Of a DNA stretch of 29,287 bases, positions 19,719 through 29,287 are shown piece after piece. Numbering within the stretch: the first letter of the stretch is position 1; each line of letters begins with the position of its first letter. The stretch comes from Gammaproteobacteria bacterium (GTDB lineage: Bacteria > Pseudomonadota > Gammaproteobacteria > SZUA-229), in contig JAESSQ010000253.1 in NCBI GenBank assembly GCA_016764035.1, forward strand, positions 1-29,287, written 5' to 3'. The notes under the pieces were generated by a model. It did not search any database and was not told the origin of the DNA. It worked only from the letters and a program-made list of their open reading frames with translations. The translations under genes were made by a program, and so were the position numbers.

Positions 19719-21881
19719 ATGAGCAAAAAATATATTCTTTTATCCGTTTCAGCACTGCTGCTTATCTCGTCGATAGTACTAAGCCAGACCACTTCAAATA
19801 ATTCTTCTGCCGCAGATAATTTTTCAAACAACCAACACTCAACACCTCATCGTTTTGATGTCGCAATAAAACAGTCAAAAACAAATGAGGCAGTATCGCT
19901 AACAAAACTTACCTCAGAAACACATCATGATGCGTATACACAAACGCATAATCATAGGCCAGACCCCCTTGAAGACCTTGAAACCAGCATAGATACTACT
20001 GCTACTAAAATACCCTTTTATTCTGACGAAAAGCTGGCGCAACTACGACAATTATTTTTGCACGCAGAAAATGCCATAAAAACAAAAAATGATACACAGT
20101 ATTTTCTGCTAATCGATCAACTAAAAGAATACTCACTGTACCCTTACATTCAGTACCAATGGCTAAAGAAACACCTTAGCCATAAACAAAAGATAAAGCA
20201 CTTCCTTCAATCAAACCCCCATTCAAGGTATGCCAAAAAACTAAAACGCCAATGGCTATATTACTTAGCAAAACGTAAACAATGGCCAATTTTTCTCGAG
20301 TTTTACTACACGACCAACGAAACAACATTGAATTGTTATTACCACCGTGCACAATTCTATACAGGTAATAAACAGGCAGCACTAATTGGCGCAAAAAAAT
20401 TATGGGTTGTTGGCAAATCGCAACCACGTCAATGCGACCCACTGTTTGTACAATTACAAAAATCAAACTTATTCACTCAAGATCTACGATGGCAACGATT
20501 TGAAGCTGCCTTACATAACAATAAAGTCGGTCTCGCTAAATATATAAAAAACCTTATGCCTGGCAAGCACCACGCCACAGCACAGCTCTGGATAAACCTG
20601 CACCGTGACCCAGCACGCTATATGCGCGTTTTTTTAAAGCGTAATGACAAGGCTCAATCAGCCATGATGTTCAGTCACGCTATTAATCGACTGGCAAGTA
20701 AAGATATTACCAGAGCCATTCAAATATGGGATACAAATAAAAAGCGTTTTACTATTAATAAAAATCAGGCCAGAAAGCTGGAAAAACGCTTAGCACTTAA
20801 ACTTGTGTTTAAGCGTGAGTCCGGCGCCTATGATCGCCTCAGCCAATTAGAAGAGCCCGATAGCAGTAGTAGAACATGGCGGATACGAACCGCATTGCTA
20901 GAACAAAACTGGCCTAATGTGTTAACCGCAATACATGCTTTGAGTGATACTGAAAAAGCACAAGAGAAGTGGCAGTACTGGTTAGCTCGCGCATATATGG
21001 AAACCGATGAAATCGCGATGGCTCAAGCACTGCTAACTGACCTTTCCAACAAACGAAGTTTTTACGGTTTTCTTGCGGCAGACAAAGTAAACAGCCTGTA
21101 TAAATTATCCAATAACCCCATCATCGTCTCGCCAGAAGAGATCACAAATCTAAAACACCGCAAGGAATTTCATGTTGCATTTGAATTAATGGTTCTCGAT
21201 AAAAAAAATGAGGCCAAACTGCAATGGTGGCATGCGCTCAAGCAATTAAACAAAAATGAAATTATTATCGCAGCAAAGTTAGCGCAACAATGGCAATGGG
21301 ATGAGATCGCCATTTTCACTATTGCCAAAGCCAAACACTGGGACGATATAGCCATGCGTTTCCCTCAAAGCTATGCCGACAAAGTACATAAAAATTCAGC
21401 CAAACAAAAACTTAACCCAGCTATTGTATTTGGTTTAATACGGCGGGAGAGTGCCTTTAATGAAAAAGCACATTCACCCGTGGGTGCTCGTGGCCTTATG
21501 CAGATAATGCCTCGTACAGGCCGCCAGATTGCCAGACATTTTAACGAACGCTGGCGTGGTGCGAATAGTCTATATAACCCTGCCACCAACGTAAAATACG
21601 GTTCATACTATTATCAGAAATTACTCAACCAGTTTGATGGGCACTATGCACTTGCGCTGGCCGCTTATAATGCAGGGCCTGAACGTGTTAAAAAGTGGTT
21701 ACCGGAAACAAAACCCCTACCAGCAGATATCTGGATCGAAACCATCCCCTTTCATGAAACCAGAGAATATGTCGCCACCGTGCTAGCCTATACGCTAATT
21801 TATCAGCAGCAAGCCCAGTCAACAGAACTATCGATGAATGACTTCACCCGTGACGTACTACCCATAACAATAAAACCCTAG
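19719..21881 (+). CDS. slt: Soluble lytic murein transglycosylase, Slt70-like, with N-terminal extension
   Basis: Catalytic IRRESAF, GARGLMQIMP, AYNAGP and ETREYV; superhelical U/L-domain-like region. ATG 19719 plus signal peptide is preferred over TTG 19680. Confidence 0.93.
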   Translation: MSKKYILLSVSALLLISSIVLSQTTSNNSSAADNFSNNQHSTPHRFDVAIKQSKTNEAVSLTKLTSETHHDAYTQTHNHRPDPLEDLETSIDTTATKIPFYSDEKLAQLRQLFLHAENAIKTKNDTQYFLLIDQLKEYSLYPYIQYQWLKKHLSHKQKIKHFLQSNPHSRYAKKLKRQWLYYLAKRKQWPIFLEFYYTTNETTLNCYYHRAQFYTGNKQAALIGAKKLWVVGKSQPRQCDPLFVQLQKSNLFTQDLRWQRFEAALHNNKVGLAKYIKNLMPGKHHATAQLWINLHRDPARYMRVFLKRNDKAQSAMMFSHAINRLASKDITRAIQIWDTNKKRFTINKNQARKLEKRLALKLVFKRESGAYDRLSQLEEPDSSSRTWRIRTALLEQNWPNVLTAIHALSDTEKAQEKWQYWLARAYMETDEIAMAQALLTDLSNKRSFYGFLAADKVNSLYKLSNNPIIVSPEEITNLKHRKEFHVAFELMVLDKKNEAKLQWWHALKQLNKNEIIIAAKLAQQWQWDEIAIFTIAKAKHWDDIAMRFPQSYADKVHKNSAKQKLNPAIVFGLIRRESAFNEKAHSPVGARGLMQIMPRTGRQIARHFNERWRGANSLYNPATNVKYGSYYYQKLLNQFDGHYALALAAYNAGPERVKKWLPETKPLPADIWIETIPFHETREYVATVLAYTLIYQQQAQSTELSMNDFTRDVLPITIKP

Positions 21882-21974
21882 CCATATAAATATTGCACTT
21901 TAGCCGCACAACGGTATTACTCGTTTGCAGCATACTTTATTAGCCACATATCCAATCATCATCTCGCCAAGTAA

Positions 21975-22009
21975 TGTCATGCCCATGACACGCTGTCTAA
22001 AACATGACA
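21975..22009. promoter_or_regulatory. Two tandem TGTC-N8-GACA (TGT-N10-ACA) palindromes; candidate enhancer-binding-protein sites
   Basis: TGTCATGCCCATGACA (21975-21990) and TGTCTAAAACATGACA (21994-22009). Confidence 0.6.
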
Positions 22010-22184
22010 CAAATTTCTGTAAATCATTATAAATAAAAAATCTGAAAATTTCTGAAATAACTTCCCTCTAATAATATTAAAAATTCAAACAAATGCCTAT
22101 ATCAAAGGCTTTGAAGCTCGCTCACCCATAATTTTCACATCCTTTTTTAATACAAAAGACACAATAAAACTTGCTCTAATTTTT

Positions 22185-22201
22185 TGGCACGCATGTTGCA
22201 A
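22185..22201 (+). promoter_or_regulatory. Sigma-54 (-24/-12) promoter
   Basis: TGGCACG-CATG-TTGCAA matches the TGGCACG-N4-TTGCW consensus; GG at 22186-22187 and GC at 22198-22199 with exactly 10 nt between. Confidence 0.8.
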
Positions 22202-22245
22202 TATGCCTTTACAACGAGTTTCCATTAATCCGATGCGAGTAAATT

Positions 22246-22374
22246 ATGCACATTTTAAAATTTTTCATTGCAGTCACTTTACTGATTATGAGTAGCCAAT
22301 CTCACGCACTCTTTATGCCTAATGGAAGCCAGACAGATACTGTTACCACCACTAATAGTAGTGATGGTTGCTAA
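22246..22374 (+). CDS. 42-aa putative secreted peptide (21-aa signal + 21-aa mature peptide)
   Basis: MHILKFFIAVTLLIMSSQSHA-LFMPNGSQTDTVTTTNSSDGC*; n/h/c-region signal peptide; first ORF after the sigma-54 promoter; weak RBS. Confidence 0.6.
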   Translation: MHILKFFIAVTLLIMSSQSHALFMPNGSQTDTVTTTNSSDGC

Positions 22375-22421
22375 ACATTAAAACCCATATCTAACAACAT
22401 TAAACCAAGAGAGACATAAGG

Positions 22422-22532
22422 ATGAAAACTAAAAAAGAAACAGCACAGGAAACACTGATCGTAGAAATCGTATCATGGTCATTTATTGTCGCTCTTATTT
22501 ACGTAACAGCCAGAGCATTGTTCTTAGCGTAA
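22422..22532 (+). CDS. 36-aa single-pass small membrane protein
   Basis: MKTKKETAQETLIVEIVSWSFIVALIYVTARALFLA*; preceded by AGAGAGACATAAGG. Confidence 0.55.
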   Translation: MKTKKETAQETLIVEIVSWSFIVALIYVTARALFLA

Positions 22533-22608
22533 ACCTTGTCCAATCATATTATTTATGAAGCAATCTAGCCTGAAGACAATGAACAACTTTATTTAGAGAG
22601 ATACAATT

Positions 22609-22779
22609 ATGTGGAAAATTAAATACAAGCCAAACACTAACTCTCATGCATGGATAACATTAGACGCTTATGACAAAAAATCGCAGGCCTTAGCTCATGC
22701 AGACAAGGTTTCAGGCAAACACTTTAAGGTCTATGTCATTGACCCAGAGAACAATATGATCTGGAGTAACTACTGTTAA
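22609..22779 (+). CDS. 56-aa small soluble hypothetical protein
   Basis: MWKIKYKPNTNSHAWITLDAYDKKSQALAHADKVSGKHFKVYVIDPENNMIWSNYC*; preceded by AGAGAG; beta-alpha-beta-like residue pattern. Confidence 0.65.
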   Translation: MWKIKYKPNTNSHAWITLDAYDKKSQALAHADKVSGKHFKVYVIDPENNMIWSNYC

Positions 22780-22843
22780 GCAAAACATGAAGATACCATC
22801 CAGTTATTATTCATTGATTAAAACTCTCGTTTGTATATGAGAG

Positions 22844-24376
22844 TCATTGCCCGCATTGAACGGTTGTAGTCAATCGTAGGTACTGACGAATGCGACGAGA
22901 CAGGCTATCAATACCAATATTGATTATGGCGGTAATCGCAATTAGCAGTATTGCTCGATCGTATCTAATTTCTTCGAATGCGCTATCCACATAAAAACCC
23001 AATGTATATAGCCCTAACATACCGAGTATGGCTGTTTCTCGGAAGATAATCTCCCAGCGATAAAACAGAAAAGCAAGAAACTGTGGATATATTCTTGGCA
23101 CAATCTCCCAGGCAAAAAGATTCACGCCTTTTATAGAATTGTTTGGTAAAACAATCTCATTTGCATAACGGCCACAGAGATGACCAATGATGGCGCCATT
23201 GTGCAACATCAACGCTATCATCGCTGGTAGCATCGAAGGCCCCCATAACTGTAAAAAAATATACGCCAGTAGATACTCCGGCGTTGAACGCAATATAACC
23301 AGAAAGCCATGCCCTAAACCACGTCCGATTGTTCCCTGAAAATGCCGAGTTATTAATGGGAATAAGATTAACGCCAGCATGCCACTTAATACCAACGACA
23401 CCTGTGTTAATAATAATGTTTGCACGATACCATCAAATGCCTGCAACCAGAACAGTTCATAAAACCAATGAAAAAAGTTCTGTATCGTGGCAAATACAGT
23501 CGTCGTACCGTCGTCTAACGCTCGTAGTGGATAAGGCACGATATCTTCAGTAAAAAACCTTTTAACATTGGCCATATCAATATCTACTGCTGCCGGCAAC
23601 AACATATAAATAGATAATATTAGATACACCAATAATAATTGTGGCCGCAACCACCAACGCATCGTCGCTATTAGCAAATAAAAAGTTAACAATAAAGCCG
23701 CCGCCTGTGAATACAAACCTTGTTTAAAAAACACTTCAAGATAAAACCCAAGTGTTGGCAGGCCTATGAAACCTAATACGGCGCTGGTTCGTAAACCGCA
23801 TTCCAGACGATAACTGGTGTAGGTTTTTATGTGCTGCCATACCATGGGTAATCGCGTATAAAAGAAACTGACGACACGACGACTGCCACCTGGCAATGCG
23901 TTATATGGTGCTGTATCTGCCTCTTCAAATATTTCAGCATACACTTTTGCGCAAATCGCAGAAAATGGAATGGCGATAGCCAGTACACCCGTAAGTGGAT
24001 GCAGGCCGAAAAATTGTAAAAAAATTAATGCCCAGAACAATTCATGAACAGAACGCAATATGGCACATGTCATATGAACTAAACGATAGTCAAATACCAA
24101 AGACAGTAAAAAACCAAACACCGCACCTAACGATACACCCAGAAAAGCAAACGCGATTGTCTGCATTAAAGCATTAACAATTACTCGGAAATCACTAAAA
24201 TCAGGCGTTATCAAACCATGCGCTAAGCGTGACATCTCCTGCCACGGATAGAGTGTCGTTATCTCCACGTCGGAAAAAAAAGCGCATACAACAGCGACAA
24301 CGATAAATAACAGACTAATTTTTACGGTTCGAGATCGAGGATATAACGCTGTTAAAGAAACAATAGGTTCAGCCAT
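22844..24376 (-). CDS. PhnE/PtxC-like ABC permease with two fused membrane modules
   Basis: Two repeats (RSVHELFWALIF...LRTSAVLGFIG and RSTPEYLLAYIF...FRETAILGMLG); 510 aa; in an operon with the ATPase and SBP. Confidence 0.88.
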   Translation of the reverse strand: MAEPIVSLTALYPRSRTVKISLLFIVVAVVCAFFSDVEITTLYPWQEMSRLAHGLITPDFSDFRVIVNALMQTIAFAFLGVSLGAVFGFLLSLVFDYRLVHMTCAILRSVHELFWALIFLQFFGLHPLTGVLAIAIPFSAICAKVYAEIFEEADTAPYNALPGGSRRVVSFFYTRLPMVWQHIKTYTSYRLECGLRTSAVLGFIGLPTLGFYLEVFFKQGLYSQAAALLLTFYLLIATMRWWLRPQLLLVYLILSIYMLLPAAVDIDMANVKRFFTEDIVPYPLRALDDGTTTVFATIQNFFHWFYELFWLQAFDGIVQTLLLTQVSLVLSGMLALILFPLITRHFQGTIGRGLGHGFLVILRSTPEYLLAYIFLQLWGPSMLPAMIALMLHNGAIIGHLCGRYANEIVLPNNSIKGVNLFAWEIVPRIYPQFLAFLFYRWEIIFRETAILGMLGLYTLGFYVDSAFEEIRYDRAILLIAITAIINIGIDSLSRRIRQYLRLTTTVQCGQ

Positions 24377-24391
24377 GACTATTGCGCTGGC

Positions 24392-25087
24392 TCAGGATTC
24401 ATATAAAAACTGTAAGTCAGCTAGCGAAACGGATGTGGCCGGCTGGTCTATGACGATACTGCCATTTTTAATTCCGATAATTCGATTAGCAAAACATAGC
24501 GCCATTTCTACATCATGCATCGCTAGAATGACCGTATCATGCTGATCATGTAATATTTTCATTATATGTCTGGCTTGCGTGGTATCTAATGCTGAAATAG
24601 GCTCATCACCAAGTAACACCTGATTATTCTGATATAGAGCACGCGCAATAGCTACACGTTGTTTTTGCCCACCAGACAGCTCGCCAGTACGACTAAATAA
24701 TAAGTCATGTAAACCCAACGGTCGCACCAGTTGTTGGATATCATTCAACTTATCCTGCTGCGGCCAAAATAAATTTAACAAGTTATAAAACGTATTGTAC
24801 TGATTCAACCGACCCATAAAGACATTATGAAATACGTTTAGAGCTTCGACCAGGGCGACGTTTTGAGGCACCAAGGCACAATAAGAACGTTGTTGTTGAT
24901 ACAAGGCATGCAGCAGTGTCGACTTGCCTGCACCACTCTTGCCGAGTAATGCCACGTGTTCACCAGCACCTATAGACAGGTTGATATTTGTTAGTACATC
25001 TACATTTTTATAACATAGATTGGCAGATTTTAATTCAAACGAAAACGGCATAGTTTTTAACGAAAGCGTTTTTGATGTAATCGTCAA
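24392..25087 (-). CDS. PhnC-like ABC transporter ATPase
   Basis: Walker A GKSGAGKS, signature LSGGQ, Walker B LLGDE, H-loop AMHD; TTGA overlap with the SBP stop. Confidence 0.93.
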   Translation of the reverse strand: MTITSKTLSLKTMPFSFELKSANLCYKNVDVLTNINLSIGAGEHVALLGKSGAGKSTLLHALYQQQRSYCALVPQNVALVEALNVFHNVFMGRLNQYNTFYNLLNLFWPQQDKLNDIQQLVRPLGLHDLLFSRTGELSGGQKQRVAIARALYQNNQVLLGDEPISALDTTQARHIMKILHDQHDTVILAMHDVEMALCFANRIIGIKNGSIVIDQPATSVSLADLQFLYES

Positions 25088-25941
25088 TCAATAAGGCCTA
25101 TCTCTTTAGCAACATTTTTAATGGGTTCGTAATCACTGTTAGACGCTGTAATAAAACCACTACGCGGAAAGGCTGCTAATAAGTCAGGTGCATCCATCGC
25201 CAATAAAGCCTGTTGTATTTTACTAACAAACCCACTACCCCATGTTGCATCAACATCACCACGCACACTCCATTGGTAGTCAGGGTATTCAGGGGTTTTC
25301 CAGATTACAGAAACTTTATTGGTGTCTACCTTACCTAACTTAACGGCATTCTCCCACACCTCATAATTTACAGCACCAACTTCATAAGCACCTGACTCAA
25401 CCAGGGCAATGGTACGATTATGGTCGCCACTAAAACCTACTCGAGAGAAAATATTCTTAGGTGCTTCACCAAAATGATTGCGTACATAATACTCCGGCAT
25501 TAAACGTCCAGAGGTAGAACCTTTTGAGCCAAAGGTAAAGACTTTTCCCTTGATAGAATCGGGTAATTTATCCGATAAAGGTATGCCCGTTCTTTTATTA
25601 GCAATCAAATAAGTAACAAACTTTTTATCCTCAACACCCTGTGCAAGTGCTGTAGAACCTTTCACGCGATCTCGTGCCTTAATACCTGATAAGCCTCCAA
25701 ACCATGCCAACTGTACTTGATTATTACTGAATGCGGTTACTGCAGCGGCATAAGATTTAACAGGAACATACTTTACTGGAACACCAAGTTGCTCACTAAG
25801 ATAAGCTGCGACCTTATCAAAACGTTGTTGTAATTTCGTTTCGTCCTGATCGGGAATAGCGGTAAACACAAAGTCTTTAGCATAGCTATTTACCTGCACA
25901 GATAACATAAAACAAAATAATAATAATTTTAAAAAATACAT
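25084..25941 (-). CDS. PhnD-fold substrate-binding protein of the 'putative selenate ABC transporter' family
   Basis: Signal peptide; FTAIPDQD, AWFGGLSG, GSTSGRLMP and GFSGDH. The family name is recalled from TIGRFAM-type annotation and is consistent with the nearby selD. Confidence 0.8.
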   Translation of the reverse strand: MYFLKLLLFCFMLSVQVNSYAKDFVFTAIPDQDETKLQQRFDKVAAYLSEQLGVPVKYVPVKSYAAAVTAFSNNQVQLAWFGGLSGIKARDRVKGSTALAQGVEDKKFVTYLIANKRTGIPLSDKLPDSIKGKVFTFGSKGSTSGRLMPEYYVRNHFGEAPKNIFSRVGFSGDHNRTIALVESGAYEVGAVNYEVWENAVKLGKVDTNKVSVIWKTPEYPDYQWSVRGDVDATWGSGFVSKIQQALLAMDAPDLLAAFPRSGFITASNSDYEPIKNVAKEIGLID

Positions 25942-25953
25942 ATTTACCGTTCC

Positions 25954-26922
25954 TTAATTACTAACAAGATAATGCACACTAAATAATTGATCTTTATCTA
26001 CCCATGTTTTTACGTTTTCAAACCCGGCCTGTGAAGCTATCTGATGAAAGCTTTCGACAGAATACTTATGCGAATATTCAGTAAGTATTGACTGTTCTTT
26101 TTTAAACAAAAACACCTTATCACCAATAAGCACACGTTGATCTTCCTGGCTCACTAGATGCATTTCAATACGATGCTCTTTTTCATTATAAAAAGCATAA
26201 TGTTGGAATTCTGTAACATTAAAATCAGCAGCTAATTCTCGATTTATACGCACCAACAAATTTTTATTGAATCTTTCAGTATAACCAGCTTGATCATTAT
26301 AGGCAGCGTCTAAAACATTCGTGTCTTTGCGTAAGTCAACACCGATCAATAAACCACCTTCCCCACCAACCATTGCGCGTATTTCTTCGAGTACGCTAAC
26401 CGCCTGACTGGGAGAAAAGTTTCCGATAGTTGAGCCTGGGAAAAAAGCGACTCTATTTATTGTTGAAACATGATCAGGTAATTCAAGCTTACCGGTAAAA
26501 TCAGCGCAAATAGCATGCACGTTTAACCAGGTAAACTCAGCCGCCAATTTTTTTGCTTCATTCTGCAAATAGTGTTTCGAAATATCAATTGGCAGATAAG
26601 CTATTGGCCTTAACGCATCGAGCAACAGGCGAACTTTATAACTATCTCCACTACCCGGTTCAATCAATAAACAATCCTTACCAAGCGTTGCAACGATATC
26701 ATCAATATTGTTTCGGATGATGCCAACTTCGGTACGCGTTGGATAGTATTCTTTTGTATTACATATTTTTTCAAATAAACGAGAACCTTCTTCATCGTAA
26801 AAATATTTAGGCAAGATATAAGGTTCTGCAGCAGATAGACCTTCAATAACATCAACACGAAAGTCCGCCGCTTCGGGATGTTGATCGAAAAATTGATAAC
26901 GCATTGAAAGCGAGTCAGTCAT
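25954..26922 (-). CDS. egtD: L-histidine N-alpha-methyltransferase (hercynine synthase) EgtD family
   Basis: PKYFYDEEGSRLFEKIC...EYYPTRTE, LIEPGSG, YLPIDIS, FPGSTIGNF, GVDL, RIEMHL and TEYSHKY. Confidence 0.92.
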   Translation of the reverse strand: MTDSLSMRYQFFDQHPEAADFRVDVIEGLSAAEPYILPKYFYDEEGSRLFEKICNTKEYYPTRTEVGIIRNNIDDIVATLGKDCLLIEPGSGDSYKVRLLLDALRPIAYLPIDISKHYLQNEAKKLAAEFTWLNVHAICADFTGKLELPDHVSTINRVAFFPGSTIGNFSPSQAVSVLEEIRAMVGGEGGLLIGVDLRKDTNVLDAAYNDQAGYTERFNKNLLVRINRELAADFNVTEFQHYAFYNEKEHRIEMHLVSQEDQRVLIGDKVFLFKKEQSILTEYSHKYSVESFHQIASQAGFENVKTWVDKDQLFSVHYLVSN

Positions 26923-27188
26923 AGATTATTTTTGCAAGGCATGGATTTTAAAAACAACCAACAATATCGCAGTCATGAAGATGCTGCAACAAAAGTAGTA
27001 TATTTTATTAACGATTTAATAGAGCAATATCTATTGAACAAGTTCCACAATCATTTGTCGAAAACAAACTTTTACAGATTAAGCATTACAAGCAATTTAA
27101 ATACGCCAAATTTTAACGATGCTTTCAATTTTACGTGTATGCTTAGCGCGTAAAATTTCAAATTAAATTACAAAAGTAACTTGCTCGC

Positions 27189-29287
27189 ATGAATACAACC
27201 GACGACGTACCTGTACTCAAAGACCTTGTTCTTATTGGCGGCGGTCACAGCCATCTATCTGTATTGAAATATTTTGCCATGCATCCTGTGCCTGGTTTAC
27301 GACTCACCTTGATTACGCGTGATTTACACACACCCTATTCCGGCATGTTGCCTGGCTATATCGCAGGGCATTATAGCTATGATGAAGCGCATATCGATTT
27401 ACGCCCATTGGCCCAGTTTACTAAAGCGCGTATCTATCACGCAGAAGTACATAATATCGATTTAGCAAACAATCAAATAATCTGTAAAGATCGTCCACCA
27501 ATCACTTATGATGTTGTCTCGATCAACATCGGTTCAAAACCCGGTACGTTGCATATCCCTGGTGCTGAACAATTTACTTTGCCGGTAAAACCGATCGACC
27601 GTTTTTTAACACAATGGGATGACTTGATAGAGATCATTACTCATACCACTGAAAAAAACTTTCATCTGGCTATCGTCGGTGGTGGCGCCGGCGGCGTGGA
27701 AATGGCATTAGCGACACAATTTCGATTACATACTTTATTAAAACAAAAAAACATATCAACCACTTTTCTAAAATTTGATTTGTATTGTGACAGTGACGAT
27801 ATCCTGCCGACACACAACGACCAGGTAAGAAAACGCTTTAACCGTTTTCTTCGCTTACGTGGAATTAATCTACATACCAATCACCGTATCGAAGAAGTAC
27901 AACAAAACCGCTTGATAAGCAGTAATGGCGAGCAGTATAAAGCTAACGCCGTTTTATGGGTAACCAATGCCACTGCACCCTCATGGTTGGTCGAAGCAGG
28001 TCTTGATGTCGATGCCAATGGCTTCATCTCAGTCAATGACTGTCTGCAATCGACATCACATAAAAACGTATTTGCCGCCGGTGACATCGCTGCCGTCATA
28101 AACCACCCACGTGAAAAATCCGGTGTATTTGCCGTTCGTCAGGGGCCACCTCTTGCGCGGAATCTGGCACGTGCAGTGCAAAATCAACCATTAAAAAAAT
28201 TTACACCACAGAAGAAATTTCTCGGCCTTATCAGCACAGGCAACCAATATGCCATCGCATCACGCGGCAATTGGTCACTCGAGGGTGCATGGTTATGGAA
28301 AGTTAAAGACTGGATCGATCGCCGTTTTATGGACAACTTTAATCAGCTACCAGAAATGCAAACCGACAGCGCACCCCAATTCAATAAAGCCATGGCCAAC
28401 GAACAGACCTTGCATGAGATCTCTGCTATCGCCATGCGCTGTGGCGGTTGCGGCGCAAAAGTAGGCAGCACGGTTTTGTCGCGTGTGGTTAATCGCTTAC
28501 AACCAATCACCCGCGATGATGTCATTATCGGATTAGCCGACCCAGATGATGCTGCGGTCACCGAAGTACCTGCTGGCAAGTTGGTTGTACAAAGTGTTGA
28601 CTATTTCCGTAGCTTTATTGACGACCCTTACCTGTTCGGACAGATTGCCGCCAATCATGCGCTGAGTGATATCTTTGCCATGGGCGCTGAAGCGCAGTCG
28701 GCCATGGCAATAGCAACCATTCCCTACGGCATAGAAAATCAGATAGAAGATCAGCTGTATCAGACCATGTCCGGCGCATTAGAGGTTTTAAACGCAAGCA
28801 ATACTGCGCTGGTGGGCGGTCATTCCAGTGAGGGTGCCGAGCTTTCATTTGGTCTATCGGCTACCGGACTAGCCAGCCGTGAACAGGTGATGCGTAAATC
28901 AGGCATGCAGACAGGTGATGTATTAATCCTGACCAAAGCGCTGGGCACCGGCACCCTGTTCGCCGCTGACATGCGCCTTAAAGCCAAAGGCCGCTGGATA
29001 GATACCGCTTTAAAAAGCATGCTGCTATCAAACCAGGCAGCAGGGTTCTGCATGCATCGCCATGGCGCGACCGCCTGTACAGATGTCACAGGCTTTGGTC
29101 TGCTCGGCCATCTGGTCGAAATGACACGCTCATCAGCTAAGAGTGTCGAGTTACATTTAGATAACCTACCGATTTTAGATGGCGCATTGGAAATGATTGA
29201 AACCGGAATCTTTAGCTCGTTACAGGAACAAAATGTACGACTAAGACGCGCGATAAAAGACCCAGGTATTTTACGGGAACATAAACA
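27189..29287 (+). CDS. selD: Selenide,water dikinase SelD fused to an N-terminal FAD/pyridine-nucleotide oxidoreductase domain; 3'-truncated by the window edge and absent from the ORF track
   Basis: Frame translated by hand from ATG 27189 with no stop: LVLIGGGHSH, TPYSGMLPG, IVGGGAGGVE, FAAGD; then MRCGGCGAKVG (28434-), DDAA, VDYF, NHALSDIFAMG, VGGHSSE, LTKALGTG and TDVTGFGLLGHL. Confidence 0.95.
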   Translation, partial: MNTTDDVPVLKDLVLIGGGHSHLSVLKYFAMHPVPGLRLTLITRDLHTPYSGMLPGYIAGHYSYDEAHIDLRPLAQFTKARIYHAEVHNIDLANNQIICKDRPPITYDVVSINIGSKPGTLHIPGAEQFTLPVKPIDRFLTQWDDLIEIITHTTEKNFHLAIVGGGAGGVEMALATQFRLHTLLKQKNISTTFLKFDLYCDSDDILPTHNDQVRKRFNRFLRLRGINLHTNHRIEEVQQNRLISSNGEQYKANAVLWVTNATAPSWLVEAGLDVDANGFISVNDCLQSTSHKNVFAAGDIAAVINHPREKSGVFAVRQGPPLARNLARAVQNQPLKKFTPQKKFLGLISTGNQYAIASRGNWSLEGAWLWKVKDWIDRRFMDNFNQLPEMQTDSAPQFNKAMANEQTLHEISAIAMRCGGCGAKVGSTVLSRVVNRLQPITRDDVIIGLADPDDAAVTEVPAGKLVVQSVDYFRSFIDDPYLFGQIAANHALSDIFAMGAEAQSAMAIATIPYGIENQIEDQLYQTMSGALEVLNASNTALVGGHSSEGAELSFGLSATGLASREQVMRKSGMQTGDVLILTKALGTGTLFAADMRLKAKGRWIDTALKSMLLSNQAAGFCMHRHGATACTDVTGFGLLGHLVEMTRSSAKSVELHLDNLPILDGALEMIETGIFSSLQEQNVRLRRAIKDPGILREHK

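Follow-up and report, generated by a model that had tools for sequence, protein, structure and literature searches.

A probable selenoneine gene cluster, split by a contig break and accompanied by a putative selenium-oxyanion importer, in an uncultured gammaproteobacterial genus

The stretch of DNA analyzed here (the window) is a whole contig of 29,287 nucleotides (C210; GenBank JAESSQ010000253.1) from the metagenome-assembled genome (MAG) of a Gammaproteobacteria bacterium, an assembly of 2.04 Mb in 291 contigs that is 70.6% complete. Near its end, egtD, the gene of the hercynine synthase, heads a minus-strand unit that continues with the three genes of a transporter belonging to the ATP-binding cassette (ABC) type, and on the other side of a divergent intergenic region lies a gene for a SelD-type synthetase that runs off the contig (Table 1). 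We found that EgtD, a flavoprotein-SelD fusion, SenB and SenA are all encoded in this genome, score above curated cut-offs and are clustered across the contig break. The locus is therefore likely to be the left half of a selenoneine (sen) cluster, equipped with a putative importer of selenium oxyanions.

Table 1. Features at the end of the window, with positions on the contig and the families they match.
Feature	Position	Strand	Family or context
egtD, L-histidine N-alpha-methyltransferase (hercynine synthase), first in minus-strand unit	25954-26922	-	TIGR03438, PF10017
Periplasmic substrate-binding protein, TIGR04553 family (PhnD1 clade), signal peptide	25084-25941	-	TIGR04553
ABC ATPase, PhnC-like	24392-25087 (likely true start ATG 25051)	-	PF00005, TIGR02315
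ABC permease, PhnE-type, internally duplicated, 510 aa	22844-24376	-	TIGR01097
Divergent intergenic region, 266 bp	26923-27188	.	between egtD and fused selD
NDH-2-like flavoprotein-SelD fusion (SenC role)	27189-29287, ORF 27189-29285 open at contig end	+	TIGR03169, TIGR00476

The listing of open reading frames (ORFs) and the family scans place the egtD, binding protein, ATPase and permease genes in one tight unit, at the positions claimed by the original prediction, which had been made from the sequence before this analysis. Its spacings of 12 bp between egtD and the binding protein gene, 15 bp between the ATPase and permease genes and 266 bp in the divergent region hold, but the 4-bp overlap between the binding protein and ATPase genes is more likely a gap of 32 bp. 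As called, the ATPase ORF has a TTG start that overlaps the stop codon of the binding protein gene. In all relatives the alignment begins no earlier than residue 13, which makes the ATG at 25051, 36 bases further in, the more likely true start.

The assignment of EgtD is based on scores of 394 bits to TIGR03438 (cut-off 291) and 359 bits to PF10017; its best solved relatives are the mycobacterial EgtD structures 4UY5 and 4PIM (E ~1e-56), and the gene is present in a single copy in the source genome. The ATPase scores 175 bits to the equivalog TIGR02315 (cut-off 266) and has the Walker A and LSGGQ motifs as well as the D-E pair of Walker B. The permease stays just below its equivalog TIGR01097 (204.5 against 216.7 bits) and matches it in two stretches, the two halves of the protein being 32% identical to each other and rich in hydrophobic segments. 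Judged by the signal peptide of the binding protein, the ATPase motifs and the duplicated permease, the transporter parts look intact. A Protein Atlas search returned the same family names again. Compared with PhnCDE of Escherichia coli, the unit has the same fold families, and binding protein, ATPase and permease follow each other in the same order, but all three equivalogs stay under cut-off, the permease is a fused double PhnE, and C-P lyase genes are absent from the surroundings. The distance from the transglycosylase gene (slt) to the permease gene (21882-22843) measures about 960 bp here and about 40 bp in a relative of the same genus (G005).

The gene divergent from egtD had been described as selD. 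The SelD domain is indeed there, but only as one part of a larger product, a flavoprotein-SelD fusion of 773 residues that the contig end truncates at residue 699. The N-terminal half of this fusion scores 488 bits to TIGR03169 ('Nterm_to_SelD'; cut-off 310) and the C-terminal half 270 bits to the SelD family TIGR00476 (cut-off 125), while the score to TIGR04369 ('fusion_not_SelD'), 470 bits, is below the cut-off of 700. The active-site motif RCGGCGAK contains a cysteine, Cys418, and not selenocysteine. In its N-terminal domain the protein comes nearest to type II NADH dehydrogenases (NDH-2), FSP1 and sulfide:quinone reductase, and this domain has no redox-active Cys pair. Fusions of an oxidoreductase to SelD form a curated family and are common in gammaproteobacterial MAGs, including that of a tubeworm endosymbiont; the protein described here is identical to them in architecture, passes both cut-offs and has a Cys-type SelD active site. 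Our literature search found no characterization of such a fusion as the SenC of a selenoneine cluster, nor of its putative reductase role. In three other genomes of the genus (G018, G044, G049) a second, stand-alone canonical SelD (434-450 bits) is encoded besides the fused one.

That no senA or senB lies in the window is true, but only since the window is the whole contig: both genes are located about 3 kb past its end. The rest of the genome was checked for them, and they were found side by side on a second contig (C140). SenA (C140:5175-6509) scores 485 bits to NF041186, above the cut-off of 420, and 304 bits to the EgtB model, below the cut-off of 360; SenB (C140:6441-7490) scores 402 bits to TIGR04348 (cut-off 300). 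In reverse complement, C140 opens with the 17 bases on which the window ends, an exact overlap that keeps the SelD frame, and the SelD tail read on C140 resembles that of homologues and completes the protein to 773 aa. This overlap, the in-frame tail and the synteny in 13 relatives of the genus argue for the adjacency of the two contigs, and through it a SelD-type synthetase is clustered with senA and senB. The joined order reads egtD-binding protein-ATPase-permease <> flavoprotein-selD > SulP/STAS permease, small lipoprotein < senB, senA >. Over 27000-29287, the public contigs of the source runs are only fragments of 98-889 bases with adapter loose ends, none of them shown to bridge C210 and C140.

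The SulP permease between selD and senB (615 aa, with a STAS domain; 8140-9984 of C140, locus L133, minus strand there) is a second candidate carrier of an oxyanion, selenate or sulfate, inside the cluster. We did not adopt it as a designed part, as the slot between selD and senB carries unrelated cargo in relatives, and no SulP homologue was found at this position in the genus relatives examined. The slot is a variable insertion site, occupied by a giant DUF11-repeat protein of 1297 aa in G013 (L040 11536-15429) and by an RND efflux pump, a membrane-fusion protein and a TetR regulator in G020 (L043 13106-18149).

The original prediction of a selenometabolite locus is thus borne out by the presence of SenA and SenB in the same genome, their connection to the window and the repetition of the gene order in 13 relatives. 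In the selenoneine pathway, EgtD trimethylates histidine to hercynine, SelD provides selenophosphate, SenB converts selenophosphate and a UDP-sugar to a selenosugar, and SenA converts the selenosugar and hercynine to selenoneine (Kayrouz et al., 2022; 10.1101/2022.04.13.486033). At the locus studied here, the ABC importer would bring an inorganic selenium oxyanion into the cell, and the NDH-2-like N-terminal domain of SelD may help to reduce the imported selenium to selenide. EgtD would serve selenoneine only, and the one SelD would also supply SelU, the tRNA 2-selenouridine synthase.

To follow the locus within the genus, fourteen loci from other genomes were compared. In 13 of these, egtD is divergent from the fused selD and senB and senA lie on the far side of selD; the remaining locus, a contig of 3.4 kb from G023, has the transporter only. 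The divergent pairing of egtD and selD is retained in 14 genomes. The transporter is present in eight genomes of the genus, absent from six and decayed in one. It stands together with the cluster in G000, G005, G010, G013, G014, G020 and G049, and in G023 it has a small contig to itself; in several of the genomes without it (G004, G006, G009, G024, G045, G046) egtD abuts a lytic transglycosylase gene (G004, G006). In G021 (L045 9163-10493) the binding protein gene is frameshifted and the ATPase and permease genes are mostly deleted, with egtD, selD, senB and senA intact. In G045 (L052 7301-8258 and 11891-13208), egtD and senA are both broken into pseudogenes, with selD and senB intact. Two sen-less members of the genus have egtD beside an EgtB-like gene (G007:C57:12000-14222 and G011:C17:35717-37917) that scores about 340 bits, under the SenA cut-off; by this measure they probably make ergothioneine rather than selenoneine. 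The second of them, G011, also has a stand-alone SelD.

An alignment of 14 intergenic regions from the genus was used to look for regulatory elements. One conserved block at about 26962-26994 (TATCGCA-N14-GCAAC) resembles, in reverse complement, a -35/-10 pair facing egtD, and another at about 27134-27145, CGTGTA(A/T)GCT, lies 44 nt before the selD start. No shared palindrome or operator was detected in this alignment. A scan of 22600-27400 for sigma-70 promoters and terminators gave counts not above those of shuffled controls, and an Rfam search of 21800-29287 with E up to 0.1 gave no match. The co-regulation of precursor synthesis with selenium uptake proposed in the original prediction is no more than plausible, with two promoter-like blocks kept within the genus and no shared operator. 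Co-transcription of egtD with the transporter genes is probable from their arrangement.

We then considered what the transporter may carry. The binding protein scores 389 bits to TIGR04553 (cut-off 250) and 146 bits to the PhnD equivalog TIGR03431 (cut-off 261). Ten distant representatives were looked up, and NCBI applies the name 'putative selenate ABC transporter' even to proteins at 41-45% identity, with no cyanobacterial names among the cluster members of these ten. Its closest solved structures are nevertheless those of picocyanobacterial PhnD1, from Synechococcus MITS9220 (7S6G/7ZCK) and Prochlorococcus MIT9301 (5LQ5/5LQ8). A family profile built from 35 diverse TIGR04553-type proteins scores 358 bits with 7S6G and 339 bits with 5LQ5, and 149 bits with the next family, PtxB; on these scores PhnD1 and the 'putative selenate' proteins of TIGR04553 are one family. 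The residues in contact with the ligand in 7S6G (Tyr44, Ser124, Thr125, Ser126, His156, Asp203 and Tyr204) correspond to Y64, S142, T143, S144, H174, D221 and Y222 here, so all direct ligand residues (Tyr, Ser-Thr-Ser, His, Asp-Tyr) are identical, and none of the seven varies among the 86 close relatives. In the second shell, two residues that hold water in PhnD1 are smaller in the present protein (Thr65 to Ser85 and Ser123 to Gly141). The two proteins also differ in setting, the one described here lying inside a selenium cluster and PhnD1 having been characterized with phosphorus ligands only.

According to the structural papers on PhnD1, its affinity for phosphite exceeds that for phosphate or methylphosphonate, with phosphite bound at micromolar or better affinity; three oxygens in trigonal arrangement are required, and Asp203 acts as hydrogen-bond acceptor. 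The authors termed the affinity for phosphite fortuitous, as the strains cannot use phosphite, and called the role of the protein paradoxical; its gene is unresponsive to phosphorus limitation and shows no linkage to genes for phosphite use. Selenium is not mentioned in either of the two structural papers. A 2022 review states that phosphate transporters carry selenite and that no high-affinity selenium uptake system has been identified in prokaryotes. Our own search of the literature found no paper linking the TIGR04553 family or PhnD1 with the binding of selenium species. The original prediction had left the ligand of the transporter open, which stands with regard to selenium; for phosphite, phosphate and methylphosphonate, structures of family members with the bound ligand exist.

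Like phosphite, hydrogen selenite is trigonal with three oxygens, a lone pair standing where phosphite has its P-H bond. At a pH near neutral it stays protonated, a good fit for an Asp acceptor, while selenate is fully deprotonated. Selenite is thus a plausible candidate ligand of the binding protein. Because the pocket is identical to that of PhnD1, with its need for three trigonally arranged oxygens and its Asp acceptor, and because phosphate transporters carry selenite, hydrogen selenite is more likely than selenate to be the putative ligand.

To see in which company the transporter occurs elsewhere, species-representative genomes were scanned with the family alignment. This yielded 80 loci, 79 of them outside the genus, which were analyzed by tblastn with the cluster proteins and by unbiased clustering of all neighboring ORFs. 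Most loci are from Gammaproteobacteria, and others are from Campylobacterota, SAR324, Latescibacterota, Poribacteria, Desulfobacteraceae and further groups. The selenium association claimed for the transporter was recovered: 39 of the 79 loci have at least one selenium gene (selD, selU, senA or senB) within 10 kb. SelU and canonical SelD are each encoded near 18 loci, fused SelD near 14, SenB near 11-14, SenA near 8 and EgtD near 6-7. Other recurrent neighbors are lineage-specific housekeeping genes and a bisC-type molybdoenzyme; genes of phosphite or phosphonate catabolism, including clusters for phosphite dehydrogenase, C-P lyase or phosphonatase, were not among the recurrent neighbors of the 79 loci. 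The gene senB lies directly upstream of the transporter in L061, L075 and L080 and is divergent from it in other loci. As for the linkage to egtD, its conservation is confirmed for the divergent pair of egtD and selD in the 14 genomes of the genus, but the position of egtD directly before the transporter is confined to the genus. The transporter remains linked to selD or selU in genomes without sen genes, which argues for a general, inorganic selenium source as cargo and not for a pathway intermediate. In a 2026 JACS survey, ABC_peri_selen was found beside 3.1% of the surveyed sulfoxide/selenoxide synthase (EgtB/SenA-type) genes, compared with 8.1% for senB. The bisC/TorA-type molybdopterin S/N-oxide reductase of 800 aa adjoins the transporter in eight loci (L122 7041-9449 and seven among L054-L132) and might act on an oxidized selenium compound before its uptake or use.

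The neighborhoods also bear on the strongest alternative, in which the ABC transporter imports a phosphorus oxyanion, either phosphite or, with medium affinity, phosphate, as has been proposed for PhnD1, and the selenium neighbors mean nothing for selenium supply. It draws on the ligands of the closest solved relatives (phosphite, phosphate and methylphosphonate), on the conservation of every residue that touches them, and on the dispensability of the transporter for the sen cluster within the genus. Against this, half of the 79 loci, which are spread over many phyla, lie within 10 kb of selD, selU or sen genes, the recurrent neighbors lack the phosphite dehydrogenase, C-P lyase and phosphonatase clusters, and PhnD1 itself neither responds to phosphorus limitation nor is linked to phosphite-use genes. 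We consider a phosphorus importer unlikely, but a serious alternative.

The fate of hercynine was assessed from the other selenium and thiol genes of the genomes. SelA was not found in the source genome nor in four relatives (92-98% complete), while SelU is present in all five, and the fused SelD is the only SelD in the same five genomes. With SelU present and no other SelD encoded, one SelD would provide for selenoneine as well as for the selenation of tRNA. In the source genome no EgtB passed the cut-off, and in the sen-bearing relatives that are 95-99% complete SenA is the sole EgtB/SenA-type match, so that EgtD has no ergothioneine pathway to feed there and is probably dedicated to selenoneine in genomes with the cluster. 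The reverse, that EgtD feeds ergothioneine and stands beside selD by chance, could appeal to the fact that EgtD is common to both pathways and that SenA does use thioglucose in vitro, if poorly (Kayrouz et al., 2022). It is very improbable in view of the missing EgtB, the retention of the egtD-selD pair in 14 genomes and the joint decay of egtD and senA in G045. Finally, an organic cargo of the transporter (hercynine, selenoneine or a selenosugar), suggested by its probable co-transcription with egtD and its place inside the cluster, was rejected as barely credible, since the pocket, identical to the one in PhnD1, is a small and closed site for oxyanions and the transporter lies beside selD and selU in many genomes without sen or egtD genes.

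Several observations weigh against a selenoneine cluster with its own selenium importer. The transporter is dispensable for the pathway, as six sen-bearing genomes of the genus are without it and the copy in G021 has decayed. Its co-transcription with egtD is deduced from the 12-bp gap, and in two relatives the gap between egtD and the binding protein gene amounts to 120-216 bp; a search for sequencing runs returned four DNA runs from one subsurface-metagenome study, with no RNA runs listed. No selenium gene lies near the transporter in 40 of the 79 loci outside the genus, and the ligands measured for the family are phosphite, phosphate and methylphosphonate only. A reductase role of the N-terminal domain of SelD, which has no redox-active Cys pair, is pure inference. 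Even so, the selenoneine cluster with a putative selenium-oxyanion importer accounts best for the locus.

The separate elements can be combined in a more specific proposal, which we put forward tentatively. The TIGR04553 transporter may be a dedicated high-affinity importer of hydrogen selenite, with selenite as the real ligand of PhnD1, and the NDH-2-like domain may reduce the imported Se(IV) to selenide, which would pass directly to the kinase domain of the fusion protein. If true, selenite as the real ligand would explain the 'fortuitous' binding of phosphite by PhnD1 and why it shows no tie to phosphorus starvation or to the use of phosphite.

In the senA-senB-senC cluster that Kayrouz et al. 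(2022) described from Variovorax paradoxus and Amycolatopsis, as here, SenA, SenB and a SelD-type synthetase are clustered. The locus described here differs in that SenC is the fusion of 773 aa with an NDH-2-like flavoprotein and, as the only SelD of the genome, would also work for SelU; in that egtD is first in the transporter unit, an arrangement found only in the source genus; in the lack of EgtB, which would leave hercynine for selenoneine only; and in the variable cargo between selD and senB. The combination of a sen cluster with egtD and a predicted transporter of selenate is itself already published (Kayrouz et al., 2022; 2026 JACS survey).

As such, the cluster is ordinary, and with it an uncultured genus of subsurface Gammaproteobacteria probably joins the known producers of selenoneine. 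It appears to be a self-contained version of the pathway that supplies its own hercynine, shares its one SelD with the selenation of tRNA and has an importer as an optional part. Beyond the literature searched, three points are new: the cluster is complete across the contig break, the transporter is optional and decaying within one genus, and the 'selenate' binding-protein family is that of the structurally solved, functionally puzzling PhnD1. This identity of TIGR04553 and PhnD1, together with the selenium neighbors in many phyla, ties two questions to each other, how prokaryotes take up selenium and what role PhnD1 has.

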